DNA of 64,000 nucleotides from Escherichia coli (lineage in GTDB: Bacteria; Pseudomonadota; Gammaproteobacteria; Enterobacterales; Enterobacteriaceae): assembly GCF_017348835.2 (NCBI RefSeq), contig NZ_CP072315.1; one strand, 5' to 3'. Below are positions 1 to 26,272 of the stretch, one piece after another (positions within the stretch are counted from its first letter, which is position 1; every line of letters begins with the position of its first letter). The position numbers were made by a program, and so were the translations under genes. Under the pieces are notes generated by a model that was not told where the DNA came from, searched no databases, and was given only the letters and a program-made list of their open reading frames with translations.

Positions 1-60
1 TGGACTCACCGCGCATCGAGCCGGATGTGTCGATAACAAGGTAAACAGGCAGGCGGCGCA

Positions 61-702
61 TCACATGTAATTCCTCAGGTGCGAGACAAACGAATCTGAT
101 TCTGAAGGCTCACCAATTGCCCTGAGTTTCCAGCCTGTAGCCTCGCGTATCAGCTCGGCAAAAACCATGGAGCGCTGGCTGGCGAAGGCGGGTCCGCCAG
201 AAAGATCGAATCGTGCCATTTCAATATTACGGGCATCTACTGCCCGGATGAAGGCATTCTGAACTTTACCAAAGTGCTGCTGGAGCTTTTCACCATTGTA
301 GATCTGAACGATGAACACAATTTTCTCGTACTGAGCGTCAAGGGAATTCAGGCGCACAATAATTTGCTCATCGTCACCATCACCGGCTCCGGTTCGGTTA
401 TCGCCCGTCAGCCAGATATTTCCTGACTTATGGCGAAGGCTGTTGAAAAAGATGATATCGCCATTCACAAGCGTTGGTTTACCATTTTCCACATTGCCGA
501 GATCGGTCACCTTTCCGGCTGAATTACACAGGAAAGCGATCACATCAAGGTCGTATTCTTCTTCTTTTTTACCAAAGATCCCGCCGAGGAAACCTTTCTT
601 TTCCTCATTAATATCCCAACCCAGGCCGATAGTAACGGACGAGAGATCGTATTCATTTTTTTTCAGGCTTACGCCCTGGCCTTTGCTCAGACTGACAGAC
701 AT
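61..702 (-). CDS. terX: TerD-family stress protein (TerX-like)
   Basis: 213-aa ORF with TerD-domain hallmarks (MSVSLSKG N-terminus, GDNRTGxGDGDDE motif) shared with the TerZ/TerD/TerE paralogs in this window; sits beside vWA TerY and TerW. Confidence 0.75.
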   Translation of the reverse strand: MSVSLSKGQGVSLKKNEYDLSSVTIGLGWDINEEKKGFLGGIFGKKEEEYDLDVIAFLCNSAGKVTDLGNVENGKPTLVNGDIIFFNSLRHKSGNIWLTGDNRTGAGDGDDEQIIVRLNSLDAQYEKIVFIVQIYNGEKLQQHFGKVQNAFIRAVDARNIEMARFDLSGGPAFASQRSMVFAELIREATGWKLRAIGEPSESDSFVSHLRNYM

Positions 703-724
703 GACATCCCCTTAATTAATAAAA

Positions 725-1444
725 TTATAAGACCACGTTTACTTCTGGCGGCGGCGGTGGCAGGTCTTCAAGACCGATCACTTCTTTTTTGCTGGACTCC
801 ACTTTCTGACTGCCTACCGAAATGCTCGCACTGACCCATTTAAAGAAAGCTTTAATCGTCGAACTGTCAGCTGTATCGAGCTGAACCACGATTTCAGTGA
901 TTTCTTTGAGGACGCTGGTATCGGCATCATGCCCGGCTGCACATGCCACAACAACGCCGGTTCTGGCCGCTTTAAAGTCATTCAGGCCTTTACGCCAGTC
1001 ATCATTCGGACTTCCATCCGTCATCAGGAATACAAGGGGACGCCAGTCACCTTTAGTGTCAGCCGTCGTTTTCTGTACTTCTTTGGCAATGGAGCTGGCC
1101 GTCAGGGTAAGCGCTTCGCCAAGAGAGGTGGTGCCGCTGGCTGTTAGTGCTGGCATCTGGAAACTCAGGAGGTCTGTCAGGGGGACTGCCTGTCGGGCTG
1201 AAGAATCAAAGGTGATCACTGACACGTAAGCCGTTTCGAGTGCATACGGATCCTGTTTCAGCGTGGTAAGCAGCGTCTGAACGCCATTCTTAACCGCTTC
1301 GATAGGCTCTCCGTGCATAGAGCCGGACGTGTCGAGTAGCAGATATACGGGTAAGCGTCTCAAATGTAATTCCTTCTTAAGAGATCGGAAGAGGAGAGTA
1401 GTTTCAGGAAGAGGCCAGAGTTTGTAGATTTGATAAAACGGCAC
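725..1444 (-). CDS. terY: von Willebrand factor A domain protein (TerY-like)
   Basis: 239-aa ORF with a MIDAS-like motif (LLLDTSGSM ... MTDG); the true start may be a downstream alternative codon. Confidence 0.75.
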   Translation of the reverse strand: MPFYQIYKLWPLPETTLLFRSLKKELHLRRLPVYLLLDTSGSMHGEPIEAVKNGVQTLLTTLKQDPYALETAYVSVITFDSSARQAVPLTDLLSFQMPALTASGTTSLGEALTLTASSIAKEVQKTTADTKGDWRPLVFLMTDGSPNDDWRKGLNDFKAARTGVVVACAAGHDADTSVLKEITEIVVQLDTADSSTIKAFFKWVSASISVGSQKVESSKKEVIGLEDLPPPPPEVNVVL

Positions 1445-1789
1445 GACATCTGTCGGGTGGAGATTAAATACTCAGAAGCGGCATTAAAGAAATAAGTTAA
1501 CCACCATTGAATTACCGACATGTGAATGGCCTCTTATCAGAGAAAAAAATTCAGACCGTACTGGAATATAAATTTCTGAAAAAAACTCCGGCAAAAATAA
1601 ACTTTCTTATGTATGAAAATCATCATACATCACAGATCTGCATGAATGGAGTGTAAATCGCCCAAAGATTGATGTGTAGCACAAGAGGATGTCAAGACAC
1701 CAGGTTTTGTAGGCAGAAAGGCGCTGCTGACATTGCGGGAGGAGAATAGATCAAAACTCCGTCACGCAGATACAGAGGTGAAATATGAC

Positions 1790-1814
1790 AAAACCGGGGT
1801 TTTCACCCCGGTCT
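1790..1814 (-). terminator. Putative intrinsic terminator downstream of terW
   Basis: Hairpin ACCGGGG/CCCCGGT followed by a short T-tract on the minus strand, immediately 3' of the terW stop. Confidence 0.4.
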
Positions 1815-1825
1815 GAGATTTAGCG

Positions 1826-2293
1826 TCAGGACTTTTTAGCGCTGTATTCTTTTATCAGTTCATCAACGGAGTGCAGAGCCAGCTTCTCTACCGCTTCACT
1901 TCGGGTCGAGCCACTCAGCGCAGCCAGACGGTCAATTTTTCTTAAAATCCGCATGCGTAGCGATAATGACACGGCTGTTTTTTTATCCTTATCGAGTACG
2001 ACCTTCCCTGTGGACTCACCGGTTTTCAGTTCAGCATTCTGTGCGAGCGCTTCATTCATCCGGCGAAGGGTCTTTTTATCCAGCTGGCCCGGATTAACGA
2101 GATGGTAGGAATGACCTGCCTTGCTGTATTTGATCTCCGCAGAATATGACTCGCGTAGCTCTTTGAGTGCCCGGGTTAATGTCGGCTCTGAGCATTCCAG
2201 ACTGGTTATAATGTCGGCAGCGGAAACGGGCTTGCCGGTGCCCAGTAAGTTGGCAAGCTTAAAAATCCGGGCCTGTCTGGTATTTAATTGCAT
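1826..2293 (-). CDS. terW: TerW-like regulatory protein
   Basis: 155-aa ORF; size and position between terY and the Ter-linked module match terW of ter islands. Confidence 0.65.
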   Translation of the reverse strand: MQLNTRQARIFKLANLLGTGKPVSAADIITSLECSEPTLTRALKELRESYSAEIKYSKAGHSYHLVNPGQLDKKTLRRMNEALAQNAELKTGESTGKVVLDKDKKTAVSLSLRMRILRKIDRLAALSGSTRSEAVEKLALHSVDELIKEYSAKKS

Positions 2294-2310
2294 CGTAAGA
2301 TTTAGCCTGC

Positions 2311-3519
2311 TTAAAGGGTTAGTGGTTCAATAGGCTGAAAAATGAAGGTACTGCTCATCTTTCGAATAACCGGGTGATCGCCTAACGCTTCAACCGGATC
2401 AATGTGTTCTAAGCCTGCAAAATTTACTGACGACATCTGGCTGCGACTGCATTTGCAGGACAGGATATACTCATCCTCCAGATAGCCGGTCCGCTTACTG
2501 ACCCGTTGCGTAAAGCCTGACACAATCACGTTGTCGAACGGTAGCGTATGTAAAACGATACCGACCAGGCGGAACAAGCAGCCATGGACGTGGCGGGCAT
2601 AGTTTTCGCGTACGGCTTTTTGCGTCATGGCTTTTTCCGTCAGCTCCGTGCCCCGGGCATTAACGCCGTAAATCTTATCAGGGAAATCTTCAATCTCAGC
2701 TAAATCAACATCCAGCAGGACTGCTGATAGCTCCGGCTTTACTTCAAATGCAACAAGCGTTTCACGCGGCCATTCAGTTTCTGCCAGCACACCCGCCAGG
2801 TATGATTCGAAAAACGCGGCGTCTGTCCGGAACTGCTGCCGGGCATCTGCCTGAGCCGTGGCGAGCCGTTTTTCATGTTCTTCAGCCTCAAACTTCCAGT
2901 TTGCATACTGTTCGGCCCAGGCCGTCCGTTGTTGCTGGTACCGGTGCTGTCGAAGGGTATTCTCACGCTCCACATCAATCAGCTCCTGCTGCCACCGGCG
3001 AAGATTTTCGGCGTGGCGCTCAGCTTTAGCTGATTCCGATTCAAACCATTTACCCAGAAAACTAATGCCTTCGCTCTCGGCAGGCTTTTCCGGCAATGCA
3101 AGATAGTCTGGCTTTTCTGGACGCACCGGTGCCGGAACCTGAAAAGGCGACGTTCTGTTATGCAGGTATACTGCTTCCAGCTCTGCCCAGCTGATGCCTG
3201 TTTTAGGATCCGGCGTCAGCTCGTGAATATTACGGATTGCGGTCACCGCTGACATGAGATCAGCGGCTTCCTCCTCAAGCGCCTGTCTGAGCCCCGGGTC
3301 GGTAGCCGTCCGGTTCCCACCTCCGGAACGCGCGGCCCGATCAAGCCGGGTACGGTAACTCAGCCCGGTACCGGGCAAGCCCAGATTGGCATAGGTCCCC
3401 CGGCTTCCAAAAGAAACGGAAGCACCTCTCGGCCCGACACTCAGGCTCGGTGCACCGTTACTCAGGTTGAGGCGAACACCAGGAATAATGTTGATCGACT
3501 TTCTGAATCTGAACCCCAT
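2311..3519 (-). CDS. Ter-associated protein with DUF4236-like N-terminus, function unknown
   Basis: 402-aa ORF co-directional and tightly packed with the module; glycine-rich N-terminal segment (GPRGASVSFGSRGTYANLGLPGTGLSYR). Confidence 0.55.
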   Translation of the reverse strand: MGFRFRKSINIIPGVRLNLSNGAPSLSVGPRGASVSFGSRGTYANLGLPGTGLSYRTRLDRAARSGGGNRTATDPGLRQALEEEAADLMSAVTAIRNIHELTPDPKTGISWAELEAVYLHNRTSPFQVPAPVRPEKPDYLALPEKPAESEGISFLGKWFESESAKAERHAENLRRWQQELIDVERENTLRQHRYQQQRTAWAEQYANWKFEAEEHEKRLATAQADARQQFRTDAAFFESYLAGVLAETEWPRETLVAFEVKPELSAVLLDVDLAEIEDFPDKIYGVNARGTELTEKAMTQKAVRENYARHVHGCLFRLVGIVLHTLPFDNVIVSGFTQRVSKRTGYLEDEYILSCKCSRSQMSSVNFAGLEHIDPVEALGDHPVIRKMSSTFIFQPIEPLTL

Positions 3520-3529
3520 TATGATTTCC

Positions 3530-4489
3530 TTAATGATGCTGGGTCACGGTAAGTAATCTGATTCCATCAGCGCTTTGCTCGTTCTGTAACCCATAAAAAC
3601 GAGCTCTGTCCAGAATGCCAGCCGCCCAGCGGCGATGTGTGGCGGGTTCACACATTGCTCCCTGCGACTTAAACACGGCCTGGGTAGAGTTCAGGATCCG
3701 CAGAGCGTCAGAATGCTCACCCTGAGTGACCATCAGCGCGTTTTGAATGACCTCTATCTGACCCGGGTGAATGGCCGTTTTCCCAACAAGCCCATGTGCC
3801 ATATCAAGAGCCAGCTCTCTGGCCATTACGGCATGATCGTCAATATGCTCACATACGGGCGCGGTCAGGGCAAAATCACGCGGGCCGAAGACCGAAACGA
3901 GCATTTTGATGACGTAGCCCATCGGGCTGTCATACAGCGTCAGGTCCCGGGGACGGCGAAGCGACACAACGTTCATAAGATCGTTGCCGCCGATTCGAAG
4001 CGCAATAATGCGGTCGTGGCAGGGATGTTCCACCAGACGGGTGGCCAGCTCCCGCATCTGAACCACGTCAAAGACGTCTTCTGTTTCCAGCGTTGGCATC
4101 ATGCACAGGTGAGTCCCGCCCATGATATCCCACCATTCAGCTAACGAACTGAGGGTAAATTTCGGCAACACAAACCCGTCGACAGCGGAAAGATCATAAT
4201 GCGCTTTTAACCATCTGCCCATTTCGGCATGCCGGGGGCGAATGAACACCAGAGGCCAGTCATTTTTACCCAGGCTATGCATGCTGTTACTGAGCTCGTG
4301 CAGCAGGTGCTCCAGATTTTTGAGGGCGACGGGGATGTCTGCTTCACTGACAGCATCCTCCAGGCAAATCACCAGAGAGCGCAAACCCGGGATTTTCCCG
4401 TGCAGGACGGCATCAGCAATATCTTCCCGTGTTGCAGGCATGTATAGCGTGGCTCCCAGATTCCAGGGAGAAAGACGATTTTTCATCAA
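3530..4489 (-). CDS. HpcH/HpaI aldolase / citrate-lyase beta-like (TIM-barrel) enzyme
   Basis: 319-aa ORF; start overlaps the upstream gene's stop (ATGA at 4486-4489), indicating translational coupling; fold assignment is from sequence similarity by eye. Confidence 0.6.
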   Translation of the reverse strand: MMKNRLSPWNLGATLYMPATREDIADAVLHGKIPGLRSLVICLEDAVSEADIPVALKNLEHLLHELSNSMHSLGKNDWPLVFIRPRHAEMGRWLKAHYDLSAVDGFVLPKFTLSSLAEWWDIMGGTHLCMMPTLETEDVFDVVQMRELATRLVEHPCHDRIIALRIGGNDLMNVVSLRRPRDLTLYDSPMGYVIKMLVSVFGPRDFALTAPVCEHIDDHAVMARELALDMAHGLVGKTAIHPGQIEVIQNALMVTQGEHSDALRILNSTQAVFKSQGAMCEPATHRRWAAGILDRARFYGLQNEQSADGIRLLTVTQHH

Positions 4490-5565
4490 AGTACCTTCTT
4501 GATAATGGTTACAGCCCGATACTGGCCGAGGGTTCCCCCCATTTCTGTAACAACTATTCCCTTTTCACGAGCAAGCCCTACAAGCAAGGCAACGTCCGAG
4601 TCGTCAATAGAACGCACAAATACATGGTCCGGTACCCGACGTAATACAGCCCGGGTTGCTTCAGCAATACCGGGTTTTATACGATTGACGCTGTCCACTT
4701 TAAATTCATCGGCCAGGAACGCGATAACGTCGCGACTTGTCTGCCATAAGACCCGGGCTGACTCCGTATTCCAGCTCAGGGGAGCGAGGGATGACGGGGT
4801 TAACTTCTTACGGAAATGAGCGACGGTATCGACAAGCATCCGGCTGCATTCGAATTCACTGAGATGCTCGCAAACCATGCACCCGTGTAATCCTTCAGAG
4901 GACCACACTGACCGGGAGATCAGGCCTGACACCGGCGCACCCATGATGCCAAAAGGAATGAGCCAGTCATCATCACTGGCTGCAAGCCAGGAGCAGCCAC
5001 AGGGATCGGCCAGGACAACCAGTCGCGGCTGCTCAGGATAGCCCGGGCGATCTTTCAGTGCGCGTACAAGCTCTCCGGTAATTGCGCCTTTACCTGTCCA
5101 TCCGTCAACAAAGACAATACCGCTGGTACCATGCCGCTCTTCAATGACGTCGAGGGCTGCACCGTCAATTCCACGATCCCGGATAATGCTGATACCGTAA
5201 TGCCATGAGGTTTTCCCCATGTCACGCAGGGCCTGGTGCAGCATAACGCCGAGCGGCACGCCAGCCCTGACAAGACTGGCCAGTACAATGGGCTCATCAC
5301 CAAAGCGTTTGGCCAGAGCAATAGCGAGCTGTGTGACTTCTTTTGCAAGTCTCTCTGCGCCCCGATCCAGCGCCCGGTGAAACAAATCAAGATGCCATTG
5401 TGTTGGCGCTGGCTCCTGACTGAGCATGTCCGAATAATGTTTCTTCCCTGACTGAATCAGCTCTTCTTTTTGCTCAACCGGCGTCATCTCAATGACAACC
5501 GGCTTTAGCAGAAATTCCACGTCACCGGGCTGGTATGAGCCGGTAAATGTGTCATGTGGCTGCAT
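4486..5565 (-). CDS. Phosphoribosyltransferase-like protein (divergent)
   Basis: ATG at 5565 preceded by a GGAGAA ribosome-binding site and placed 1 nt after the HAD stop; degenerate PRTase-like motif IVFVDGWTGKGAITG. Confidence 0.55.
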   Translation of the reverse strand: MQPHDTFTGSYQPGDVEFLLKPVVIEMTPVEQKEELIQSGKKHYSDMLSQEPAPTQWHLDLFHRALDRGAERLAKEVTQLAIALAKRFGDEPIVLASLVRAGVPLGVMLHQALRDMGKTSWHYGISIIRDRGIDGAALDVIEERHGTSGIVFVDGWTGKGAITGELVRALKDRPGYPEQPRLVVLADPCGCSWLAASDDDWLIPFGIMGAPVSGLISRSVWSSEGLHGCMVCEHLSEFECSRMLVDTVAHFRKKLTPSSLAPLSWNTESARVLWQTSRDVIAFLADEFKVDSVNRIKPGIAEATRAVLRRVPDHVFVRSIDDSDVALLVGLAREKGIVVTEMGGTLGQYRAVTIIKKVL

Positions 5566-5566
5566 T

Positions 5567-6340
5567 TTAATTTTCTCCAAAAATTCGCTGTGAAATGGCA
5601 TCTGCAAACTGACTCTGACGCGGGATGCCAAACCAGCTGCACAGTTTCATAAAACGATGATCGCTCAGGCTGTCGCCCAGGCCAATTACGGGGAAGACTC
5701 CGCGTTCAGCCCGAAGTTTTTCAAGCAGCCATCTGACTGCCAGCCCTTTCTCAACCGGGGTGGGAAGCCAGGCCACGTTATTACTGTTGCGGTGGATGTA
5801 GAAGCCCTCGGTCGGAAACACCGTTTCTATCTCATCTGCAATGGCATTAAGCTCGTCAAGGCGGGTGCTGTCGCGGTGCTTCATCACCATATAAACCGCC
5901 GTTTCACCGTATTCGAAGTTCAGCCTTGCCCAGGCATTGATCCCTTTTGCGTCCATCATTTCAGTGATCAGACGCTGCATCGATGTCAGCTTTTCCTGGT
6001 AGGGAGCCAGCTGGCCAAGCATATGGGCCTTCCACTCCTCGTCGGGTTTGCCTTCAGGCGTGAGAATGACGGCCCCGTGCGTGGTGATTGCCCAGGAGTG
6101 GAAAGGGATCCGGACGCGGCTGATTTCTTCAGTTCCCCGGGCGGTAACAGGTATGAGTTCAGCCTGCTCCAGGAGCCAGTCCACCAACATGGACTGTTCT
6201 TCCGTCATAAAGCTTCGTGGATTCAGGGTGCGATCAACGGCACCGGTACGGAATGGCTCCAGGGCCAGCTCGTCCACCATTTTACGACGGGTCTGAAAGA
6301 GCGTGTCGTCAAGGTCGCTCAGAACAACGGGTTTATTCAT
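5567..6340 (-). CDS. HAD-superfamily hydrolase
   Basis: Starts MNKPVVLSDLDDTLF (HAD motif I DxDxT); ATG at 6340 overlaps the PRTase gene's stop by 8 nt; the longer track ORF 5567..6676 is an upstream extension. Confidence 0.7.
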   Translation of the reverse strand: MNKPVVLSDLDDTLFQTRRKMVDELALEPFRTGAVDRTLNPRSFMTEEQSMLVDWLLEQAELIPVTARGTEEISRVRIPFHSWAITTHGAVILTPEGKPDEEWKAHMLGQLAPYQEKLTSMQRLITEMMDAKGINAWARLNFEYGETAVYMVMKHRDSTRLDELNAIADEIETVFPTEGFYIHRNSNNVAWLPTPVEKGLAVRWLLEKLRAERGVFPVIGLGDSLSDHRFMKLCSWFGIPRQSQFADAISQRIFGEN

Positions 6341-7481
6341 AGGTAACAATCTCCACGACGGGCGCAACCTCAGCCAGGGCTTTAAGAAGCTGCGTGTCAA
6401 TACTTTCTGCGGGTGTCTCAGTACACACAAGAATACGGTCAAACTGCTGGTGGGCGACGTTATAGACAAAATTGGGGATGCCCAGCCCGTAGTTATCCGT
6501 AAAGGAAATGGCGGACTCAATGGCATAACCAACGGCGATAGGGGAGCGGGTGGTCGAACCATAAAGTGCCTGTGCTCCGGCAGCTTCGAGCCGTTCAGCA
6601 AGCAGGAACGGCTCCCAGACGAATTCCCCGGTCCCGAGAACCAGAATACGTTCCCCCTTGCGGACGGAGACCTCATGGCCGAGATCGGCCGCAGGTGCGA
6701 GCATCCCCAGTCGACCCCAGGACTGTTTTCCCAGGATGTCCCATTCTCCGCGTGAAGTTACGTTGACTTTCGGCATGTCCGGGACAGGTGCATCAGGTAA
6801 TGGGGTCCATCCCCACTGACCGCTTACAAGCGAAACCGAAGTGACGGGCAAGGATGTGCGCTCCGACAGGGCGTTGCTACTCCAGTCGGTAAGCGTAACG
6901 GCGATAACCTGTTCAATATGTTGAAGCTTGCCGGTATTACGCAGGGCAGAAAGCAGGTTAATAAAGGTATTACCGGTGGTTGCCTCGTCATCAATCAAAA
7001 CCAGCGTTCGTGCGTTGGTAACACGACGTCTTTTCTCTTCATCATCTGGCAGATAGATCAGATGATCGGTGGCGTGGCTGTGTTCTTCCTTGAACTCGCA
7101 AAGTAACGTGCCATCAACCGGGTGACGGGTAGAGGTCAGATAGACAGATTCACGATGCTGGTGGCGCACTTCATCAAACACACCGGCCCCTAGCCCAACG
7201 GCGGTTTCAGCCATACCGATAAAAAGTACGGGCCCTGTCAGCGTTGCGGGGAACTGGCTGGCAAGCTGTCTGTAGGCCTGCCGCATGACTGAGGGTGGCA
7301 CGGGAATGTGCCTGCCGAGTACTTTGCTGACAAACAGAAAGGCGCGTTTCGGGTTACGTCTTTCAGCGATATCAAACAGGTCATCGAGCGAAACATCACC
7401 CTGGTCGCGGGTTACCTGTATCGTACCGCATGAGAGGGTACGGCGATAAATCATATCTTCGAGGGTATCAGACATAAACAC
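6333..7481 (-). CDS. Phosphoribosyltransferase-domain protein
   Basis: 382-aa ORF with PRTase signature VLIDDEATTGNT; GTG start at 7481 or ATG at 7475. Confidence 0.7.
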   Translation of the reverse strand: MFMSDTLEDMIYRRTLSCGTIQVTRDQGDVSLDDLFDIAERRNPKRAFLFVSKVLGRHIPVPPSVMRQAYRQLASQFPATLTGPVLFIGMAETAVGLGAGVFDEVRHQHRESVYLTSTRHPVDGTLLCEFKEEHSHATDHLIYLPDDEEKRRRVTNARTLVLIDDEATTGNTFINLLSALRNTGKLQHIEQVIAVTLTDWSSNALSERTSLPVTSVSLVSGQWGWTPLPDAPVPDMPKVNVTSRGEWDILGKQSWGRLGMLAPAADLGHEVSVRKGERILVLGTGEFVWEPFLLAERLEAAGAQALYGSTTRSPIAVGYAIESAISFTDNYGLGIPNFVYNVAHQQFDRILVCTETPAESIDTQLLKALAEVAPVVEIVTYE

Positions 7482-7484
7482 GCC

Positions 7485-8543
7485 TTAATTCAGATGGTTA
7501 GAGAGTGATTCCGGGTAAACGATGACATCTGTGATGGATCTCACTGCAACCGGAGAAAAGGTATTTCTGGCGCTCTGGATCACCGCATCTTCAGACATCA
7601 GACCGAGCTTAAAGGCAGCAAACAACCCGGGAAGGTTCACCCCGCTGTGAAGGGTATAACCCACCCCGCCTGACGGACGCATGTTGGTTTCAAGCAGCAC
7701 CGGGTTGCCATTCACATCGTTTCGCGTCTGAACATTCACCAGCCCGTCGGCCTTCATAACCCGGGCGCAGTCACAAGCCAGTTCCCAGGCGCTTCCTTCG
7801 TTTACCAGATACTGGATAGCCCCTTCCTTACGGCGTCCCACGGCTGCGAGTATTTCGCCCTTATCCGCGAGGATATCGACGGAAAATTCCGGGCCTGGCA
7901 GGTACGGCATCAAAACAAGGGGTTTAAACGACTCAGAAGCCGATGCTGCTGCAATATACTGTTGCGGACTGACCAGACGATGTTCGGGATGATTAAAGAC
8001 GGCCATGGGCGAAGCACTGTCATCAAAGCGCCAGAATCCCATGCCATAGATACCCGTCACCGGCTTCACGCATACCGGGCTGTCCGAGAACGGCGGGGCC
8101 GCGAGGTGCGTCTTTAATTCTGCCAGCGTATTCACCCGCCAGGACGGTACGACCGGGAGCCCGTTTTGCTCCATAAACTGAGCAAAAGTAACTTTTTCGT
8201 CAGCCAGAGTTAACCAGTCGACGCCTGTTGCACCGGTAGTAAGGGTGGCTCCGGTCGATTCAATGGCTGAACGGTGTTCTTCAAACCACTGGCTGTTACG
8301 GCCAGTATGAATATGGTGGATGCCGTAGGTCTGAATGGTTTCCTGAATAAACTGAAGACGTTTTTGAGGATCTTCAGGTTCAGTCAAAGAATAATCGGCA
8401 ACGGAAAGAATTTCATGTCTTTCGTTACGGTGGGAGGCAAATACGGTAATAGCAAAATTATTTTTTTGTGCAAATGATTTTACCCCCTGAATAATATCTC
8501 GCTGGGAGGACAAACCTTCCATAAACCAAATTTTCTTGTTCAT
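7485..8543 (-). CDS. ATP-grasp family enzyme
   Basis: 352-aa ORF, first gene of the minus-strand module; ATP-grasp-like fold judged from sequence. Confidence 0.65.
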   Translation of the reverse strand: MNKKIWFMEGLSSQRDIIQGVKSFAQKNNFAITVFASHRNERHEILSVADYSLTEPEDPQKRLQFIQETIQTYGIHHIHTGRNSQWFEEHRSAIESTGATLTTGATGVDWLTLADEKVTFAQFMEQNGLPVVPSWRVNTLAELKTHLAAPPFSDSPVCVKPVTGIYGMGFWRFDDSASPMAVFNHPEHRLVSPQQYIAAASASESFKPLVLMPYLPGPEFSVDILADKGEILAAVGRRKEGAIQYLVNEGSAWELACDCARVMKADGLVNVQTRNDVNGNPVLLETNMRPSGGVGYTLHSGVNLPGLFAAFKLGLMSEDAVIQSARNTFSPVAVRSITDVIVYPESLSNHLN

Positions 8544-8865
8544 TTTTTTTAATTATCCGGAACGCCATGCAAATTTATGATTGAGAAGTGAGTCTATGAG
8601 TGTCTACGCTACATGTCAATCATAATATGATTAATAACTTCAGTGGTTATGGAGTGCGTCAGTGTTTTTTTAGTGCCTTATAACGTATTGATATTTAAAT
8701 TAAAAATAGAAAAATGAACACCATGAAAAGGATTTATTTTTGTGTTTTTGAAGAAAACTACCAAAATTTCCCTTGTCAGAGAACTTCATCATGATATGAT
8801 TTTCTTCGTCAGTTACTAAATATACCTTTGATTGTCTCGGTCATTACCATTTTAAGGAATAAAAC
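8544..8865. promoter_or_regulatory. AT-rich divergent intergenic region between the Ter-linked module and terZ
   Basis: 322-bp AT-rich non-coding stretch separating divergently oriented operons; GGAA ribosome-binding site upstream of terZ. Confidence 0.5.
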
Positions 8866-9447
8866 ATGGTTTCATTAAGTAAGAACCAGACGGTATCACT
8901 CAGCAAAGAATCTTCAGCATTAAGCCAGCTTCAATTCGGTCTCGGTTGGGATCCGGTTAAGAAAAAAGGTCTTCTTGGAGGATTGTTTGGAGGCAACGAC
9001 TCAATCGATCTCGATGCTGGCTGCGTATTAATGGACAGCACCGGTAAAACAATTGACACCATCTGGTTCCGCAAACTGGAATCCACCTGCGGCGCTGTTG
9101 TGCACAGTGGCGATAACCTGACCGGTGAGGGTGACGGTGACGATGAGGTGATTAAGGTCAACCTCTCCCGACTGCCTGCAAACGTTGAATACCTGGCGTT
9201 TACGGTAAACAGCTTCCGTGGTCAGTCGTTCAATGACGTCGAAAACGCGTTCTGCCGCGTTGTCGATCAAACCGGCAAAGAGCTGGCTCGCTACAAGCTG
9301 ACTGAGCAGGGCTCACATACCGGGATCGTTATTTCTTCGCTGCGCCGTAATAACGGCAACTGGGACTTTACCGCCCTTGGCCATGCCTGTCGCGGCCGCA
9401 CAATTGACGATATGCACTCCGATATCGTTTCAGCGGTTATTCGCTAA
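8866..9447 (+). CDS. terZ: Tellurium resistance protein TerZ (TerD family)
   Basis: 193-aa ORF with TerD domain; first gene of a terZABCDE-order cluster. Confidence 0.85.
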   Translation: MVSLSKNQTVSLSKESSALSQLQFGLGWDPVKKKGLLGGLFGGNDSIDLDAGCVLMDSTGKTIDTIWFRKLESTCGAVVHSGDNLTGEGDGDDEVIKVNLSRLPANVEYLAFTVNSFRGQSFNDVENAFCRVVDQTGKELARYKLTEQGSHTGIVISSLRRNNGNWDFTALGHACRGRTIDDMHSDIVSAVIR

Positions 9448-10604
9448 TGAACCTGACGCCGGGGGGCAATGCCCCCGTTCCAGCCCAGGAGTTGCGGGTC
9501 CGGATCACCTCGGGCGGCCAGGTGGATGCTTCGGCGTTTCGCCTGTATGCCGACGGGAAGGTGCAGGGTGATGCGGACATGGTGTTTTATGGTCAGCCAC
9601 GTAACGATGATGGTACCGTCAGCCTGGTCAGTGAAGGCCAGTACTCAACCTTTACTGTCGCGCTCAACCGGCTGAAACCTGATGTCCAGAAAATTGCGTT
9701 CACCGTGACCTGTGACGGTGGGCAGACGGTGTCCGGTCTTCGTAATCTTTCCATCGACGTGGAGCAAGGGGCTACCGGCCTGGTTAGCGGCAGTGTCGAA
9801 CTGAGCGGCCGTCAGGAAGCAGCCTTAATTCTGGGTGAATTTTACCGTCGTAATAATGACTGGAAATTCCGCTTCGTTGCGCAGGGGTTCAACGGTGGAC
9901 TTAAACCGCTGGCAGAGCATTTCGGCGTAAATATTGCCGACGAACCGGCTCCCGCAGCCCCGACTCCTCCGGTTGTAACCCCTCCGCCAGTTGAGACAAA
10001 AATCAGCCTGAGCAAGGTATCGCTGACAAAAGAGAAGCCTGCAATCAGCCTGACCAAACGGGATAACTTCGGTGAAATCCGGATCAACCTGAACTGGCAC
10101 CGGGGCAGCGGCAAATCAGGCTTTGCAGGCATGTTCGGCTCCAAAGGAATCGACCTGGATCTGGGGGCCTTTGTTGAGCTTCAGGACGGGTATAAATCGG
10201 TCATTCAGGCGCTCGGTAATGCATTCGGTAATTATCGCGATGAACCGTATGTTCAGCTCAAGGGCGATGACCGGACGGGTGATGTATCAGACGGCGAGTG
10301 GCTGCATATCAATGGACGTGAATGGAAGCATATCCGCGAAGTGCTGATTTACGCCTTTATTTATGAAGGTGTTCCCAGCTGGGACAAGACTGATGGTGTG
10401 GTCACCATTCATGTGCCGGATCAACCGCCCATTGAGACCCGCCTGACCGAAGGTGAAAACCGTCGCACATTGTGCGCCATTGCCAGACTCGTAAACGAAA
10501 ACGGCGCAATTAAAGTCGAGCGAATTAACCAGTACTTCAAAGGCCAGGACGAAATGGACCGGGCATTTGGCTGGGGATTTCGCTGGAGCGCCGGTTCTAA
10601 ATAA
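9447..10604 (+). CDS. terA: Tellurium resistance protein TerA
   Basis: 385-aa ORF; TAATG stop/start overlap with terZ. Confidence 0.85.
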   Translation: MNLTPGGNAPVPAQELRVRITSGGQVDASAFRLYADGKVQGDADMVFYGQPRNDDGTVSLVSEGQYSTFTVALNRLKPDVQKIAFTVTCDGGQTVSGLRNLSIDVEQGATGLVSGSVELSGRQEAALILGEFYRRNNDWKFRFVAQGFNGGLKPLAEHFGVNIADEPAPAAPTPPVVTPPPVETKISLSKVSLTKEKPAISLTKRDNFGEIRINLNWHRGSGKSGFAGMFGSKGIDLDLGAFVELQDGYKSVIQALGNAFGNYRDEPYVQLKGDDRTGDVSDGEWLHINGREWKHIREVLIYAFIYEGVPSWDKTDGVVTIHVPDQPPIETRLTEGENRRTLCAIARLVNENGAIKVERINQYFKGQDEMDRAFGWGFRWSAGSK

Positions 10605-10626
10605 CACAGCAACAAAGGAAACAGGT

Positions 10627-11082
10627 ATGAGCTTTTTCGACAAGGTAAAAGGTGCCATTAACTCTGGCCGGGACGAACTGACCCGCCAGGTTGGTCGTTT
10701 CAAAAACAAAAAATTTATGCACGGCACCGTTGCTGTATGTGCCCGTATTGCCGTATCGAGTGACGGCGTGAGTTCGGAAGAAAAGCAGAAAATGATGGGC
10801 TTTCTTCGCTCTTCAGAAGAGCTGAAGGTCTTCGATACCAATGAGGTGATCGAGTTCTTCAATAAACTGGTTTCAAGCTTCGATTTCGATGTTGAAATCG
10901 GCAAGGGCGAAACCATGAAATACATCCTGGCGCTGAAAGATCAGCCTGAGGCCGCTCAGCTGGCCTTACGTGTTGGTATTGCCGTTGCGAAAAGTGACGG
11001 TAACTTCGATCAGGACGAGAAACTGGCCTCCCGCGAGATCGCTATCGCGTTGGGCTTCGACCCGGCTGAATTTGGCCTCTGA
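10627..11082 (+). CDS. terB: Tellurium resistance protein TerB
   Basis: ATG at 10627 with AAGGAAACAGG ribosome-binding site gives 151 aa (MSFFDKVKG...); the track ORF from 10567 is an upstream extension. Confidence 0.85.
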   Translation: MSFFDKVKGAINSGRDELTRQVGRFKNKKFMHGTVAVCARIAVSSDGVSSEEKQKMMGFLRSSEELKVFDTNEVIEFFNKLVSSFDFDVEIGKGETMKYILALKDQPEAAQLALRVGIAVAKSDGNFDQDEKLASREIAIALGFDPAEFGL

Positions 11083-11104
11083 TCCACATCCCTAAGGGTA
11101 AAAT

Positions 11105-12145
11105 ATGGTTTCCACACACATCGGCTTCCCGACTGAAACGGTCATTGTTTTCATTGCGCTTTCAGTCGGTGCCATCTTTATTGACCTGTTTATGCACCGT
11201 GATGACAAGCCCATTTCCCTGAAGAGTGCGGCGCTCTGGTCCGTATTCTGGGTTGTGGTTGCGATGGCATTTGCCGGTTTCCTCTACATCCACCACGGTG
11301 CTGAGGTTGCCAGCCTGTTTGTAACGGGTTATGCGCTGGAGAAAGTGCTGTCGGTCGACAACCTGTTTGTCATGATGGCCATCTTCTCCTGGTTCGCCGT
11401 TCCTGATCGTTACCGCCACCGTGTTCTCTACTGGGGGATCATTGGTGCCATCGTCTTCAGGGGCATCTTTGTCGCCATCGGTACGAGCCTGCTGAGTCTG
11501 GGGCCGTATGTTGAAGTTGTCTTCGCTATCATCGTCGCCTGGACGGCGGTCATGATGCTTAAAAGCGGTGATGACGATGATGAAATTGAGGATTATTCCC
11601 AGCATCTGGCTTACCGCATGGTTAAACGCTTCTTCCCTATCTGGCCGAAGCTCAGAGGTCATGCTTTCCTGCTTAACCAGAAGGAAGTGGATGCCGAACT
11701 GGCGAAACCAGAAAACAGCGATGTCACCATTGGCCGTGGTAAAAAGGCGGCGCTGTATGCGACCCCTCTGTTCCTGTGTGTGGCCGTGGTTGAACTCTCG
11801 GATGTTATGTTTGCGTTTGACTCGGTACCGGCAATCATTGCCGTCAGTCGTGAACCGCTTATCGTCTATAGTGCCATGATGTTTGCTATCCTGGGCCTGC
11901 GTACTCTGTACTTTGTCCTTGAAGCACTGAAACAGTACCTGGTTCATCTGGAGAAGGCCGTTATCGTGCTGCTGTTCTTCATCGCGGCAAAACTGGGCCT
12001 GAATGCGACCGATCACATTTGGCATCATGGTTACAGCATCGCGGCGACAACCAGCCTGTATGTTGTACTGGGTGTTTTGGCGCTGGGCATTCTCGCAAGC
12101 GTCATATTCCCGGGCAAACCTGAATCTGAGGAAAAGGGGAGCTGA
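11105..12145 (+). CDS. terC: Integral membrane protein TerC
   Basis: 346-aa ORF with multiple hydrophobic helices. Confidence 0.85.
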   Translation: MVSTHIGFPTETVIVFIALSVGAIFIDLFMHRDDKPISLKSAALWSVFWVVVAMAFAGFLYIHHGAEVASLFVTGYALEKVLSVDNLFVMMAIFSWFAVPDRYRHRVLYWGIIGAIVFRGIFVAIGTSLLSLGPYVEVVFAIIVAWTAVMMLKSGDDDDEIEDYSQHLAYRMVKRFFPIWPKLRGHAFLLNQKEVDAELAKPENSDVTIGRGKKAALYATPLFLCVAVVELSDVMFAFDSVPAIIAVSREPLIVYSAMMFAILGLRTLYFVLEALKQYLVHLEKAVIVLLFFIAAKLGLNATDHIWHHGYSIAATTSLYVVLGVLALGILASVIFPGKPESEEKGS

Positions 12146-12193
12146 TCCCCTGAAGTGTTAACCTGAACAATTACTAATCGAAGAGGTTATTTT

Positions 12194-12772
12194 ATGAGTG
12201 TTTCTCTTTCCAAAGGCGGGAACGTCTCCCTGAGTAAAGCAGCTCCGTCAATGAAAAACGTCCTGGTGGGCCTTGGCTGGGATGCGCGTTCAACAGACGG
12301 TCAGGACTTTGACCTGGATGCTTCAGCATTCCTGCTGGCCGCAAATGGCAAAGTGCGCGGCGATTCAGATTTCATCTTCTATAACAACCTGACGTCATCT
12401 GACGGTTCCGTAACCCATACCGGTGATAACCGTACCGGTGAAGGTGATGGTGATGATGAATCGCTGAAAATTAAACTGGACGCCGTCCCGTCTGATGTTG
12501 ACAAGATCATCTTCGTTGTCACTATCCATGATGCTCAGGCTCGTCGCCAGAGCTTTGGTCAGGTATCCGGTGCGTTTATTCGCCTGGTCAATGACGATAA
12601 CCAGACTGAAGTCGCTCGCTACGATCTGACCGAAGATGCGTCCACTGAGACTGCCATGCTGTTCGGCGAGCTGTATCGCCACAATGGTGAGTGGAAATTC
12701 CGCGCAGTGGGCCAGGGTTATGCTGGTGGTCTGGCATCTGTATGTGCTCAGTACGGCATTAACGCGTCCTGA
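12194..12772 (+). CDS. terD: Tellurium resistance protein TerD
   Basis: 192-aa [16 protein letters not shown] motif. Confidence 0.9.
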
Positions 12773-12839
12773 TCGAAAAGTAACTTTTCACCCGGGGCTG
12801 TTAATGCAGCCCTCATTCAACTGTTTGCAGGAGCTAAAA

Positions 12840-13415
12840 ATGGCAGTTTCTCTCGTAAAAGGCGGCAACGTATCTCTGACCAAAGAAGCACCAACCATGA
12901 ATATCGCTATGGTTGGCCTCGGCTGGGATGCCCGTGTAACTGACGGTCAGGCTTTTGACCTGGACGCTTCCGTGTTCGCAGTAGGCGAAGACGGTAAAGT
13001 GCTGTCAGATGCGCATTTCATTTTCTTCAATAACAAAACCAGCCCTGATGGCGCGGTAGAGCACCAGGGCGACAACCGTACCGGTGAAGGCGACGGTGAC
13101 GATGAGCAGGTCAAAATCGATCTGACCAAAGTCTCAGCAGATATCAAAAAACTGGTGTTTGCCGTTACCATCTATGATGCAGAAGCGCGTAAACAAAACT
13201 TCGGCATGGTGAGCAACAGCTTCATGCGCGTTTACAACAACGACAACGGCACGGAAATTGCCCGTTTCGATCTGTCTGAAGATGCCTCAACCGAAACCGC
13301 TATGGTCTTCGGTGAACTGTATCGTCATGGCGCTGAGTGGAAGTTTAAAGCTGTCGGTCAGGGCTTTGCCGGTGGCCTGGCGGCTCTTGCCTCCCAGCAC
13401 GGCGTTAACATCTAA
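12840..13415 (+). CDS. terE: Tellurium resistance protein TerE
   Basis: ATG at 12840 after a GGAG ribosome-binding site gives 191 aa (MAVSLVKGG...), a close paralog of TerD. Confidence 0.85.
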
Positions 13416-13432
13416 AACAACGCTGAATCATA

Positions 13433-13457
13433 CCCCGGCAATGCCGGGGTTTTTTTT
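13433..13457 (+). terminator. Rho-independent terminator after terE
   Basis: Hairpin CCCCGGC-AAT-GCCGGGG followed by eight T residues. Confidence 0.75.
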
Positions 13458-13843
13458 GGTTGCGATCCGCTTTCAGGAGGGAGTAGTAGAAAGGGGACTG
13501 GAAATTTCAGAAAGCAGGTCATGTTAATTCAGACCTGAGCCTTTTAAAGGCAGGAAACGGATTTATCTCTGGTTGCTGGTTAAAGCCGGTATTCCGTGCC
13601 TTTTATCAACAGAATGCCCCTCTGATATATGTTACTTTTGCGGTTTATGAAGGAACGGGATCTGGAACATAAGATACCCGGTCAATCAAAATTCCAGTTC
13701 AACAGGTATAGAAACTTCAGCGTGATGAAATATGGTGTCACACCATATATACGCCTCACCAGAAATCCAGCGTCCTGAACTAAGCCTGGGGAACATATAT
13801 AAGCGCTGCGCTTTAAAAATAATCAAAAATCAGGAGAGTTAAT

Positions 13844-15085
13844 GTGAATCTACAATCCGGACAAAACATACCGCTTCAGCAATCTGCGATCAGGCTGAAT
13901 CTTCAGTACCCTGCCAAATCCGGCTTTAAAGGCGAACCCGATACCTGCCTCTTCCTGCTTAATGCTCAGGGAAAGGTAACCGGCGATTCTGACTTTATCT
14001 TTTATAATAATCTGTCTTCTCCTGAAGGGGCAGTAAAGCTCGTTACCGGTTCTCAGCAGTCCAGCATTGAGATAGCACTGGATCGTGTTCCGGCGAACGT
14101 CAGTAAGATTGCGATCACCGTTGTCATTGATGGTGAAGATACTATCAGTGGGCTCAGTTTATTGAGCATTCAGGCTCCTGGTATCGCTGATTTTCAGGCT
14201 GAGACTCAGGGCCGCAGTGAGAAAGCAATCATCCTGGGTGAAGTATATCGGCACAATGGCGCCTGGAAGCTTCGTGCGCTCGGGCAGGGTTTCAACGGTG
14301 GTCTTGAGCCTCTGGCCATTAGCTTTGGCGTTGATGTCGCACAGCCAGCTCCGCAGCCAGCAAAGCCTGCTCGTATCAGTCTGGAAAAGAAACTTGAAAC
14401 CAGATCTCCGCGCCTCGTAAGCCTCGCTAAAAAAGCCTCGGTCAGTCTCACTAAAAATAAACTGGACACCCTTGAGGCAGCGGTTGCATTTGTACTTGAC
14501 GCATCCGGCTCAATGAGTGGCCAGTTCAGTAAGGGCAACGTTCAGTCTGTGCTGGACCGCATCGCCGTTCTTGCCGCCCAGTTCGACGACGACGGTGAAA
14601 TGGATGTCTGGGGATTTGGAGAGAAGCACAAGAAGTATCCAAACGTCACACTGGACAACCTGGACACATATATTCAGTCCATTCGCGGGTCTGGAAAGCG
14701 TTCAGCCTGGGAGAACCTGCCGGGACTTGGTGGGACAAACAATGAGCCCCCTGTGATGGAAGAAATTGTCGACTACTTTAAGGACTCGAAAATCCCGGTA
14801 TATGTTGTATTTATTACCGATGGCGGGATCAGCAAGACCCGGGCGATTAAAGATGCAATCCGGCGTTCTGCCAACTACCCCATCTTCTGGAAGTTTGTCG
14901 GCCTGGGTGGTTCAAGCTACGGTATCCTCAAAAATCTGGATGACTTTACTGACCGCCGGGTTGATAACACCCACTTCTTTGCCATGGATGATTTCGGTTC
15001 GATCAGCGATGAAAAGTTATATGATAATTTACTGGAAGAATTCAGACCGTGGATCGATGAAACAAAAAGGTTAGGCATCCTGTAA
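13844..15085 (+). CDS. terF: TerF-like protein (TerD domain fused to vWA domain)
   Basis: 413-aa ORF with GTG start after a CAGGAGAG ribosome-binding site; TerD-like N-half and vWA-like C-half (VLDASGSM). Confidence 0.75.
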
Positions 15086-15647
15086 TACGCACAGTTTTCG
15101 CATGGTTAAAGGAGCTCTACAGCAGCTTAATACTGTAGAGCCTTTGTTCACTGGAAATCGTACAGGGAGGAGCATATGGACCGCATCAAGTACCTGAAAT
15201 GGATAGCTGAAGAATCACCAACTGATGATGAAATCGACAACTACGATAGTATCATTAGTCGGGGCGCAGAAAGGGCCGAGAAGGTTCAGTTGTCTTTAAG
15301 ACGTTAATATACGGGAGTTTAAATGTTCGCAGAAATCAAAGATAATTATTCGTTAGGTGGATAAAGAAAGGTTGCCATTACCAGCTTTCGACGAGTCGAA
15401 AATAAAAACCTTATTTATAGTGACAGGGAGTATGAGCTGACGCTTGCCAATGGAACAATAATTAAAAATGTACTTAGAAAAGAAGAGTGGGAACTGTTAG
15501 AAAGCAATTCAATTAAGGTTATATTATAACGAAAATATATTTACAGTTTTGGATAGGTTTCAAACGAGTCCGGACATTTGTACCTGAAGTATCTGACATT
15601 ACAGTTAAGTGACGATTATGCCAGCACGTCTGTTGCTGGCAGCTTAG

Positions 15648-17968: not shown

Positions 17969-18265
17969 ATGATCAATAATGATTACCCGTTAAACACGCT
18001 CAACCAGCTGCGTCCCTTGCTCATTGGTTTTCGCAAGGCGAATGGCCTGACGCAAAAAGACCTGTCCGAAAGGTTAGGCGTCACTCAACAGACATACTCA
18101 CGTCTGGAAGCCAACCCTGCCAGTGCGAGCATTGAACGGCTATTCAAGGTGTTTTCCATCCTGGGCGTAAAAATCAGCTTCTCCTCGGCAACCACCTCTT
18201 CAGAGAGGAAGCAGACGGAAGAAATGCTTAAATCAAACTCACCTGCACGACAGGAGGATTGGTAA
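17969..18265 (+). CDS. hipB: HipB-like HTH (XRE-family) antitoxin
   Basis: 98-aa ORF with HTH segment (LTQKDLSERLGVTQQTYSRLE) directly upstream of the hipA-like gene. Confidence 0.75.
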   Translation: MINNDYPLNTLNQLRPLLIGFRKANGLTQKDLSERLGVTQQTYSRLEANPASASIERLFKVFSILGVKISFSSATTSSERKQTEEMLKSNSPARQEDW

Positions 18266-18269
18266 CGAT

Positions 18270-19595
18270 ATGAGCCGGAAACAGCAACGTCTGGTAATTT
18301 GGATGAACGGCATCAAAGTCGGGTACTGGGAAAAAAGCAAAGGGGTAGACAGCTTAGAATACCTTCCTGAATGGGTTGCTGACGAACAGGGAAGGCCGCT
18401 GTCATTGTCCCTTCCTTTTACTCCCGGGAACCAGGTCTGGCGTGGAAATGTGGTACGTGACTATTTTGATAATTTACTGCCGGACAGCGAAGGCATACGC
18501 AGACGTCTGGCAATGCGTTACAAGGCCGATAGCCTGGAGCCTTTTGATCTGCTGACGGAGCTGGGAAAAGACTGCGTGGGCGCGATACAGCTGCTTCATG
18601 ACGGAGATGAACCCACTGATTTATATTCCGTGAAGTATCACCCGCTTACTGAATCAGAAATTGCGGCAACTTTGCGTAATACCACGGAGACATTGCTACC
18701 GGGCAGGCCAGAAGATAACGACGACTTACGTTTATCTATTGCCGGTGCTCAGGAGAAAACAGCCCTACTGTGGCATGAAGATCGGTGGTGTATGCCGGAG
18801 GGTAATACACCAACGACGCATATATTCAAGCTACCGCTCGGACTTGTGGGGAACATGAAAGCCGACATGAGCTCGTCGGTTGAAAATGAATGGCTCTGCT
18901 CGGTACTTCTCGGCCAGTACGGGCTCCCCGTGGCAAGAACGCAGATTGCTCACTTTGAAGATCAGAAAGCGCTGGTGGTAGAACGTTTTGACCGAAAATG
19001 GTCAGGAGACGGACAATGGATCATTCGTTTACCCCAGGAGGATATGTGTCAGGCCCTGGGCGTTTCGCCATTACGAAAATATCAGGCGGACGGCGGGCCA
19101 GGTATATCGGAAATTATGGAGGTTCTGAGTAATTCAGACCGTGCTGAGCGTGACAAAGCGCAGTTTTTTATGACGCAGATAATTTTCTGGATGATGGCCG
19201 CAACAGATGGCCACGCTAAAAATTTCAGTATTTCTATTGGGCCACAGGGACGTTATCACCTTACACCAAACTATGATGTGTTGTCGGCATGGCCGGTGAT
19301 CGGTCATGGGAACAATCAGATATCCTGGCAGAAGTGCAAACTGGCGATGGCCGTACGTGGCAGTAGCAACTATTACCAGATATATCGAATACAACGACGC
19401 CACTGGATCAGGCATGGTGAGATAACCGGCCTGAGTAAACAGCAGACAGAGGCGATGATAGAGGAAATCATCGCCAGAACCCCGGGTGTCATTGAACGTG
19501 TTAGCGGGCTTCTTCCGGACCAGTTCCCCCAGCAGCTTGCGGAAAGTATTTTTGATGGAATGAGGCAGCAATGCAGGCGCCTGGCTGAGAAATGA
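18270..19595 (+). CDS. hipA: HipA-like Ser/Thr kinase toxin
   Basis: 441-aa ORF, 4 nt after the hipB stop; N-terminal HipA-like coupling region and kinase-like core. Confidence 0.75.
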   Translation: MSRKQQRLVIWMNGIKVGYWEKSKGVDSLEYLPEWVADEQGRPLSLSLPFTPGNQVWRGNVVRDYFDNLLPDSEGIRRRLAMRYKADSLEPFDLLTELGKDCVGAIQLLHDGDEPTDLYSVKYHPLTESEIAATLRNTTETLLPGRPEDNDDLRLSIAGAQEKTALLWHEDRWCMPEGNTPTTHIFKLPLGLVGNMKADMSSSVENEWLCSVLLGQYGLPVARTQIAHFEDQKALVVERFDRKWSGDGQWIIRLPQEDMCQALGVSPLRKYQADGGPGISEIMEVLSNSDRAERDKAQFFMTQIIFWMMAATDGHAKNFSISIGPQGRYHLTPNYDVLSAWPVIGHGNNQISWQKCKLAMAVRGSSNYYQIYRIQRRHWIRHGEITGLSKQQTEAMIEEIIARTPGVIERVSGLLPDQFPQQLAESIFDGMRQQCRRLAEK

Positions 19596-22183: not shown

Positions 22184-22226
22184 GTTGGAGTCATTACCGG
22201 AGAATTGTATCATTAACAGTCTAGTT

Positions 22227-22892: not shown

Positions 22893-22949
22893 TATCTTCC
22901 TTACATACCCATAGAACAGCTTTCTAAGAACGGTGGGCTCGCCTGAAAA

Positions 22950-26260: not shown

Positions 26261-26272
26261 TTTTTCTCCATT

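Follow-up and report, generated by a model that had tools for sequence, protein, structure and literature searches.

The R478-type ter locus of an IncHI2A plasmid from Escherichia coli: gene content, TerD-domain paralogs and candidate mechanisms

What does a ter locus do for the bacteria that carry it, and by what mechanism? This question has been open since the 1990s, when the ter cluster of plasmid R478 was linked to inhibition of phage and to resistance against tellurite and colicins A, B and K (1995 work, summarised in PMC12054061 and PMC9933665), and recent papers still describe both the physiological function and the mechanism as unresolved (PMC12054061, PMC8115787). We considered it for a ter locus at the start of a 64,000-nt stretch of Escherichia coli DNA (contig NZ_CP072315.1 of assembly GCF_017348835.2; hereafter the window). 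An initial annotation, made from the letters alone, had described positions 61 to 15085 as a complete IncHI2-type ter island encoding six TerD-domain paralogs and two vWA proteins, and as a multi-component stress or defence locus of unclear mechanism linked to phage, colicins and tellurite; these phenotypes and the caution about mechanism both agree with the papers just cited. The locus also has practical uses and associations, since tellurite media serve in the diagnosis of Shiga toxin-producing E. coli and ter is associated with Klebsiella infection and gut fitness.

Sequence comparison placed positions 1 to ~15,220 of the window in the classical R478-type IncHI2 ter locus, or "ter-type 2", as IncHI2 copies are classed (PMC8193136). 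A blastn comparison with R478 (NC_005211) gave one alignment of 15,227 bp over window positions 3 to 15221, in which 97.6% of nucleotides were identical. R478 also has counterparts of all 16 window proteins, 93.8 to 100% identical and with order and orientation kept. The window also has the published gene order, terY3-Y2-X-Y1-W plus terZABCDEF (PMC11003894; PMC8115787). The first 15.5 kb was 100% identical to many E. coli and Salmonella plasmids, of which hundreds are deposited; as a query it matched 2499 plasmid records, 1237 of them over at least 80% of its length, and about 1180 plasmids fell in a 60 to 80% identity band. Plasmids 100% identical over the ter region were typed as IncHI2A, conjugative, MOBH and MPF_F, so that the IncHI2 assignment of the initial annotation was borne out through the typing of matching plasmids, the replicon genes themselves lying outside the window. 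The remainder of the window matched the same plasmid family and then a resistance region. On this evidence, positions 1 to ~15,220 belong to a conjugative multidrug-resistance plasmid of type IncHI2A and are its R478-type ter locus, and every feature that could be compared was that of an R478-type ter locus except completeness inside the window. Carriage of ter was common, at 1041 of 5426 complete E. coli genomes and ~2500 plasmids in the collections searched. In practical terms, the window comes from an IncHI2 multidrug-resistance plasmid, a setting in which ter-type 2 is thought to be co-selected with resistance genes (PMC8193136). Because this copy is identical in sequence to hundreds of deposited plasmids, the locus is already known and the copy by itself adds nothing to the question of mechanism.

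We also considered whether the region might be an unrelated or decayed TerD cluster, contain pseudogene paralogs or resemble ter by chance, the outcomes that would have undone the initial annotation. Nothing spoke for any of these, and we regard them as having practically no chance of being correct: the 16 genes at 61 to 15085 were intact in the open reading frame (ORF) listing and Pfam scans, with no internal stops; the TerD-domain Pfam matches had E-values of 1e-33 to 1e-88; and the region is collinear with R478. None of the 16 genes was flagged as a pseudogene by the NCBI annotation pipeline (PGAP) on a 100%-identical record.

The description of the island as complete did not hold. Only the first 20 codons of terY2 lie in the window, so that the island is cut short there. 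Both R478 and the identical plasmid pAMSH1 carry ~5 kb more of the locus on the left, encoding TerY2 (vWA), TerY3 (vWA plus TerY_C), a 545-amino-acid (aa) PP2C phosphatase and a 499-aa protein kinase. Two vWA proteins, TerY1 and the C-terminal half of TerF, are indeed present in the window, each with a metal-ion-dependent adhesion site (MIDAS), whereas the natural locus, judged from the sister plasmids, has four among about 20 genes. On the right, homology to R478 stopped at position 15221, inside a small ORF 3′ of terF (15086 to 15307) that encodes 43 aa here and 151 aa in R478; in chromosomal copies the end is at 15150. By these alignments, the conserved ter segment has its right-hand recombination boundary at 15086 to 15307. 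Past the kinase gene, pAMSH1 carries a gene for a 360-aa protein with a CoiA-like N-terminal domain (L003 8949 to 10031, plus strand), followed by genes for an Hha/YmoA regulator and a tyrosine recombinase. They may lie where the ter module meets the IncHI2 backbone.

The features of the locus, by position, strand and content, are as follows.

2 to 61, minus: 5′ end (first 20 codons) of terY2, vWA; translation MRRLPVYLVIDTSGSMRGES, including the MIDAS motif DxSxS as DTSGS; coding sequence on an identical plasmid, WP_001253658.1 (PGAP)
61 to 702, minus: terX, TerD-domain protein of 213 aa with motif GDNRTGAGDGDDE; Pfam TerD E 1.3e-52, 178 bits
725 to 1363, minus: terY1, vWA protein of 212 aa with a TTG start (PGAP start); Pfam VWA PF00092 E 3.4e-14; MIDAS DTSGS
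1791 to 1814, minus: terminator-like hairpin just 3′ of the terW stop; 10-bp stem, then a T run
1826 to 2293, minus: terW, small winged-helix/helix-turn-helix (HTH) regulator of 155 aa; weak HTH_11, HVO_A0261_N and WYL-type matches; named TerW by PGAP
2311 to 3519, minus: DUF4236 protein of 402 aa; Pfam DUF4236 E 1.2e-21
3530 to 4486, minus: TIM-barrel C-C bond lyase, HpcH/citrate-lyase-like; Pfam C-C_Bond_Lyase E 8e-114
4486 to 5565, minus: StiP cysteine-protease-like protein with a PELOTA RNA-binding domain; Pfam StiP E 4.6e-89, PELOTA_1 E 7.5e-25
5567 to 6340, minus: HAD-IIB-like phosphatase of 257 aa, annotated hypothetical; matches below cut-off (NCBIfam HAD-SF-IIB-MPGP E 3.6e-9 and HAD-SF-IIB E 3e-5; weak Pfam S6PP)
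6333 to 7475, minus: phosphoribosyltransferase (PRTase), PRTase_2 plus TRSP domain; Pfam E 5.8e-64 and 1.4e-23
7485 to 8543, minus: Ter-associated ATP-grasp enzyme; Pfam ATPgrasp_Ter E 1.7e-37
8544 to 8865, no strand: AT-rich divergent control region of 322 bp between the biosynthetic operon and terZ; consensus promoter matches
8866 to 9447, plus: terZ, TerD-domain protein; Pfam TerD E 1.2e-46, 159 bits
9447 to 10604, plus: terA, TerD N-domain, Pro-rich linker and divergent TerD-like C-domain; Pfam TerD E 3.8e-33, 115 bits, residues 24 to 159
10627 to 11082, plus: terB; Pfam TerB E 2.3e-20
11105 to 12145, plus: terC, integral membrane protein; Pfam TerC PF03741 E 2.2e-42
12194 to 12772, plus: terD, canonical TerD protein; Pfam TerD E 3.4e-88, 295 bits
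12840 to 13415, plus: terE; Pfam TerD E 3.4e-85, 285 bits; exact motif
13432 to 13450, plus: strong intrinsic-terminator-like hairpin; 8-bp stem with 7 GC pairs, then T8, 17 nt past the terE stop
13844 to 15085, plus: terF, GTG start, TerD N-domain plus C-terminal vWA; Pfam vWA-TerF-like PF10138 E 2.6e-69, TerD E 4e-35, 121 bits

Most of this interval, namely TerB, TerC, TerW and the six-gene operon for a "nucleoside-like metabolite", had been passed over in the initial annotation. TerW has been reported as a regulator of the ter operon (PMC12054061). TerB was near-identical to the solved Klebsiella TerB (2JXU, E 1e-84), as was TerD to the solved Ca2+-binding Klebsiella TerD (2KXT/2KXV, E 2.7e-122), and TerX was 100% identical to R478 TerX. 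The MIDAS of the TerF C-terminal half is intact (DASGS).

The six proteins named as TerD-domain paralogs (TerX, TerZ, TerA, TerD, TerE and the N-terminal part of TerF, at 13844 to ~14330) all belong to that family, scoring 115 to 295 bits against a Pfam TerD (PF02342) cut-off of 25.3 bits. The further claim that a common motif runs through all six failed on alignment. The Ca2+-binding motif GDNxTGxGDGDDE was exact in TerD and TerE and one residue off in TerZ and TerX, and was absent from the N-terminal domains of TerA and TerF (TerA-N and TerF-N), which have a 6-residue gap and substitutions in its place. Among the paralogs, these two domains were closest to one another (47% identity across 159 residues), and both are followed by a Pro-rich linker and an "ISLxK...VSLTK" segment; by comparison, TerE and TerD were 66% identical in the identity matrix. 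In TerA and TerF, the TerD domains that lack the motif are probably adaptor modules that do not bind Ca2+.

The C-terminal half of TerA (TerA-C) appeared to hold a further copy of the fold. TerA residues ~186 to 385 aligned collinearly with Pfam TerD below the cut-off (3-176 versus 4-177/187; E 0.011, 15.6 bits), this half matched TerX by BLASTP with an E-value of 1e-4, and hhalign of 35 TerA C-terminal halves against a TerD/E/Z/X profile gave a probability of 95.9% (E 5.5e-9, 161 columns). An AlphaFold2 model of TerA contained two all-beta domains, with a mean pLDDT score of 67 and a weak C-domain, and a Foldseek search with the whole model returned the TerD structures 2KXT and 3IBZ as best matches. 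Because the Foldseek output did not show which domain was aligned, and given the pLDDT of 67, the call for the TerA C-domain rests on hhalign. With this second, very divergent domain, profile comparison gives seven TerD-like domains in six proteins; its motif is degenerate (GDDRTGDVSDGE), so that the Ca2+ motif is present in four of the seven.

From consensus matches we infer four transcription units: terZABCDE, ended by the hairpin at 13432 to 13450; terF alone; the ATP-grasp, PRTase, HAD, StiP-PELOTA, C-C lyase, DUF4236 and terW genes, ended at 1791 to 1814; and terY1-terX-terY2-terY3-PP2C-kinase. The gene terF begins 390 nt after the 13432-13450 hairpin, has its own ribosome-binding site (GGAGAG, 5 nt 5′ of the GTG) and appears to be separately transcribed; the 1791-1814 hairpin would set the terY1-X-Y2 unit apart from the one that runs from ATP-grasp to terW. 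In the 8544-8865 region, the best divergent promoter-like sites lie at 8619 to 8591 (minus) and 8773 to 8800 (plus), with 10 of 12 matches each. In R478, insertions in terZ, terC or terD lose all three phenotypes, those in terA lower phage inhibition only and those in terE or terF have none of these effects (Whelan 1995, summarised in PMC12054061); filamentation is caused by terZ/A/B/C (summarised in PMC8123226). The unit layout fits this genetics, and the silent terE and terF insertions fit the redundancy of TerE with TerD and the position of terF in its own unit. The terXYW side, going by the title of a 1997 study by Whelan, reportedly protects against the toxicity of the ter cluster.

Two long non-coding gaps lie inside the locus, at 1364 to 1790 (~430 bp, between terW and terY1) and 13451 to 13843 (~390 bp, between terE and terF). 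Small ORFs in the intergenic intervals 1364 to 1825 and 13416 to 13843 looked like noise, and these intervals had no Rfam match. Rfam gave no match over 1 to 15.6 kb at gathering thresholds, including no yybP-ykoY or other element upstream of terC; at E-values up to 1 there were two chance-level matches only, one of which, "anti-hemB" at 13385 to 13457, overlaps the terE terminator hairpin. A repeat search of the ter region found no structured repeats, the long "repeats" being DNA for the TerD motif (TerX, TerZ, TerD and TerE) and for the MIDAS region (terY2 and terF; inverted repeat I4).

One explanation for these gene contents and phenotypes is that the locus is a membrane-proximal stress and exclusion system and not a tellurium-specific detoxifier. 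We rank this mechanism as the most likely of those weighed and hold it tentatively, short of calling it probable. TerC in the inner membrane, TerB and the Ca2+-binding TerD-family proteins (TerD and TerZ, plus TerE and TerX as redundant members) would assemble beneath the membrane into a complex that senses ion or ligand changes arising from insults to the inner membrane, such as phage DNA entry, colicins A, B and K, and oxidative damage derived from tellurite. The complex would then alter membrane permeability and ion homeostasis, thereby blunting the insult. Under TerW control, the divergent operon may produce a small molecule resembling a nucleoside, either a signal to TerB- and TerD-type domains or a ligand of them, and the vWA proteins (TerY1 to TerY3 and TerF) with the PP2C phosphatase and kinase could serve as a scaffold or switch, dependent on metal and gated by phosphorylation, which would also temper terZ/A/B/C toxicity. 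In a published model, too, a nucleoside-derivative signal is synthesised, TerB and TerD are ligand sensors, TerC is the effector in the membrane and vWA proteins give a sub-membrane structure (Iyer et al. 2021, PMC7824862, with reference to Anantharaman et al. 2012). Also in favour of the mechanism, deletion of terC in Klebsiella gave larger phage plaques and lower Zn, Mn and Te resistance (PMC12054061), and the window TerD closely matches the Ca2+-binding TerD of solved structure. Taken as a whole, the account that joins R478-type ter identity, four transcription units and a membrane-proximal mechanism is very probably the best overall explanation, the mechanism itself keeping the tentative standing just given.

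Several observations weigh against the membrane-proximal mechanism or its supports. To our knowledge, none of its steps has been shown biochemically, and we know of no study in which the nucleoside-like metabolite has been identified. Terminators and promoters were called by consensus match, and shuffled sequence gave in total at least as many such calls. The phage effect reported in Klebsiella was modest, in that plaque size changed and efficiency of plating did not fall greatly, and heterologously expressed TerC showed no Zn/Mn efflux-pump behaviour (PMC12054061). Finally, no Ter protein matched any PADLOC v2 defence model: a search of PADLOC-DB v2 with the 16 window proteins and the four off-window proteins gave no defence-model match, the vWA and PP2C proteins giving none even at E-values up to 10, and weak similarities only to WYL-like (TerW, E 4e-5), PRTase (E 8.5e-4) and generic kinase (off-window) models.

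The PADLOC result bears equally on a second-ranked possibility, that ter is a dedicated second-messenger anti-phage system. Infection would trigger synthesis of a nucleotide-like signal by the PRTase, ATP-grasp and HAD enzymes, TerB and TerD would bind it, and TerC with the vWA proteins would carry out abortive infection or an entry block, tellurite and colicin resistance being side effects. The phage-inhibition phenotype, which maps to terZ/A/C/D (PMC12054061), and the explicit model of the Aravind group (PMC7824862) favour this idea, as do the adjoining vWA-PP2C-kinase triad, which resembles the stand-alone antiphage TerY-P modules (Gao 2020, cited in PMC11090510), and a plasmid neighbourhood with other conflict genes (HipBA, HNH, Dcm and DUF4942). 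We nevertheless consider it rather unlikely, because a minimal terBCDE or terZCD set is enough for tellurite resistance, with no need of the biosynthetic operon (PMC11003894, PMC12054061), O157 islands that lack terX, terY and the TerF vWA domain still confer resistance, and the phage effects reported recently are weak. The literature that we searched contained no paper settling the ter mechanism or listing ter as a characterised defence or abortive-infection system.

The split in the Ca2+ motif might reflect a division of roles in which TerD, TerE, TerZ and TerX would be ion sensors and TerA-N, TerF-N and TerA-C would be receptors for the nucleoside-like product of the divergent operon, the locus providing small-molecule-signalling immunity against phage and colicins. 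We think this improbable. The general small-molecule-signalling idea was proposed earlier by Anantharaman, Iyer and Aravind (PMC7824862), and if this reading were true, its only new part would be which paralog plays which role. Our own modest additions, namely the motif loss in TerA-N and TerF-N, the second TerD-like domain of TerA and the four putative transcription units, are descriptive, and the primary literature may already contain them.

The properties of TerC raise the alternative that ter serves metal or metalloid homeostasis, with TerC moving or chaperoning Mn, Zn or Ca, the TerD proteins buffering Ca2+, and tellurite resistance selected or co-selected. Resistance to Zn(II), Mn(II) and Te(IV) depends in part on TerC (PMC12054061), the TerC family includes divalent-metal exporters and metallochaperones (PMC12096827, PMC10197570), TerD binds Ca2+ (2KXT), and the co-selection proposed for ter-type 2 also agrees with it. 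However, tellurite is vanishingly rare in hosts (PMC8115787), the heterologous tests gave no sign that TerC is an efflux pump, and the idea leaves unexplained 13 extra genes (the nucleoside-like pathway and phosphorylation switch) as well as the colicin and phage phenotypes. We rank it third, as an unlikely account of the whole locus, and retain the membrane-proximal system as the preferred one.

The rest of the window holds conflict-type and resistance genes. Three kb downstream of terF lie genes for a HipB-like HTH regulator (17972 to 18265) and a HipA-family type II toxin (18270 to 19595, plus). A backbone run of conflict-type genes at 20387 to 30000 encodes an HNH endonuclease (20387 to 21202), IS1 (~21486 to 22183), DUF4942 (23973 to 24791), a 401-aa coiled-coil/SMC-like protein (24788 to 25993), DUF1173 (26273 to 27592, minus), a Dcm-type C5 cytosine methyltransferase (27843 to 29270, minus) and a thermonuclease (29485 to 30000); from its gene content, this run could be an uncharacterised defence or anti-restriction cluster. 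A class 1 integron occupies 41045 to 46382, with intI1 at 45369 to 46382 (plus) and, on the minus strand, the cassettes aac(6′)-Ib-cr, arr-3, dfrA27 and aadA16, then qacEdelta1 and sul1; the sole gathering-level Rfam match in the window, AAC_AAD_leader/attI (45205 to 45279, minus), lies between intI1 and the first cassette. A mosaic resistance region (34686 to 40831 and 46786 to 64000) comprises Tn3 transposase fragments (34686 to 36743), an IS6 fragment, bleO, several copies of IS26, a PAS-domain chemotaxis-protein fragment, ISVsa3-floR (53331 to 57170), tet(A)/tetR (57770 to 59725), and aph(6)-Id, aph(3″)-Ib and sul2 (60305 to 62820). The closest record, Salmonella p2016062-242 (NZ_CP090540.1), has an extra 8.3 kb with oqxAB and blaTEM-1 beside IS26, which lies between the two matching segments of the window and is missing from it.

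How, then, does the locus compare with known systems? The gene-order comparison proposed in the initial annotation came out collinear with R478 and, for the O157 island, collinear over window positions 1762 to 14149 only. The closest relative is the Phi/PacB/TeR cluster of R478 from Serratia marcescens (Whelan et al. 1995/1997), which shares replicon type, order, orientation and all 16 genes, a likeness that extends to terY2, terY3, PP2C and kinase on sister plasmids. R478 differs by ~2.4% nucleotide divergence and by its downstream backbone past 15221, and its ATP-grasp gene, which has no entry in the (incomplete) PLSDB gene table, aligns only from residue 17. The chromosomal island of O157:H7 (SpLE1 / O-islands 43 and 48; "ter-type 1"), which adjoins iha on a prophage-like element (PMC8193136), matches terW to terE and the six-gene operon at ~97% nucleotide identity. 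However, terX, terY1 and the entire TerY/PP2C/kinase unit are missing from it, their place being taken by IS66-family elements; its TerF is a 128-aa TerD-only protein without vWA, and the StiP gene of TW14359 is frameshifted.

Klebsiella pneumoniae plasmids of the pK2044 type have the same two-operon layout, with terXYW and the biosynthetic genes opposite terZABCDEF (PMC8115787), and solved TerD and TerB proteins near-identical to those of the window, whereas the plasmid copies of the divergent type among the matches listed are ~78% identical in nucleotides, match only terZ to terE (8836 to 13455) and have different replicon types. TerY-P systems combine a vWA protein, PP2C and a Ser/Thr kinase, and by Pfam the sister plasmids carry TerY3, PP2C and kinase directly left of the window; within it, TerY1 is a TerY-like vWA protein, a paralog of these units. 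The triad itself lies off the window and has no PADLOC v2 match except weak generic kinase matches. Moreover, its kinase is annotated on the sister plasmid with a helix-hairpin-helix, whereas an OB fold forms the C-terminal part of the validated TerY-P kinase (PMC11090510). Finally, the TerC exporters and chaperones, E. coli Alx and B. subtilis MeeF and MeeY, belong to the same Pfam family (PF03741) as the window TerC; they work alone, some under riboswitch control, whereas the window TerC sits in a 20-gene system with no Rfam element upstream.

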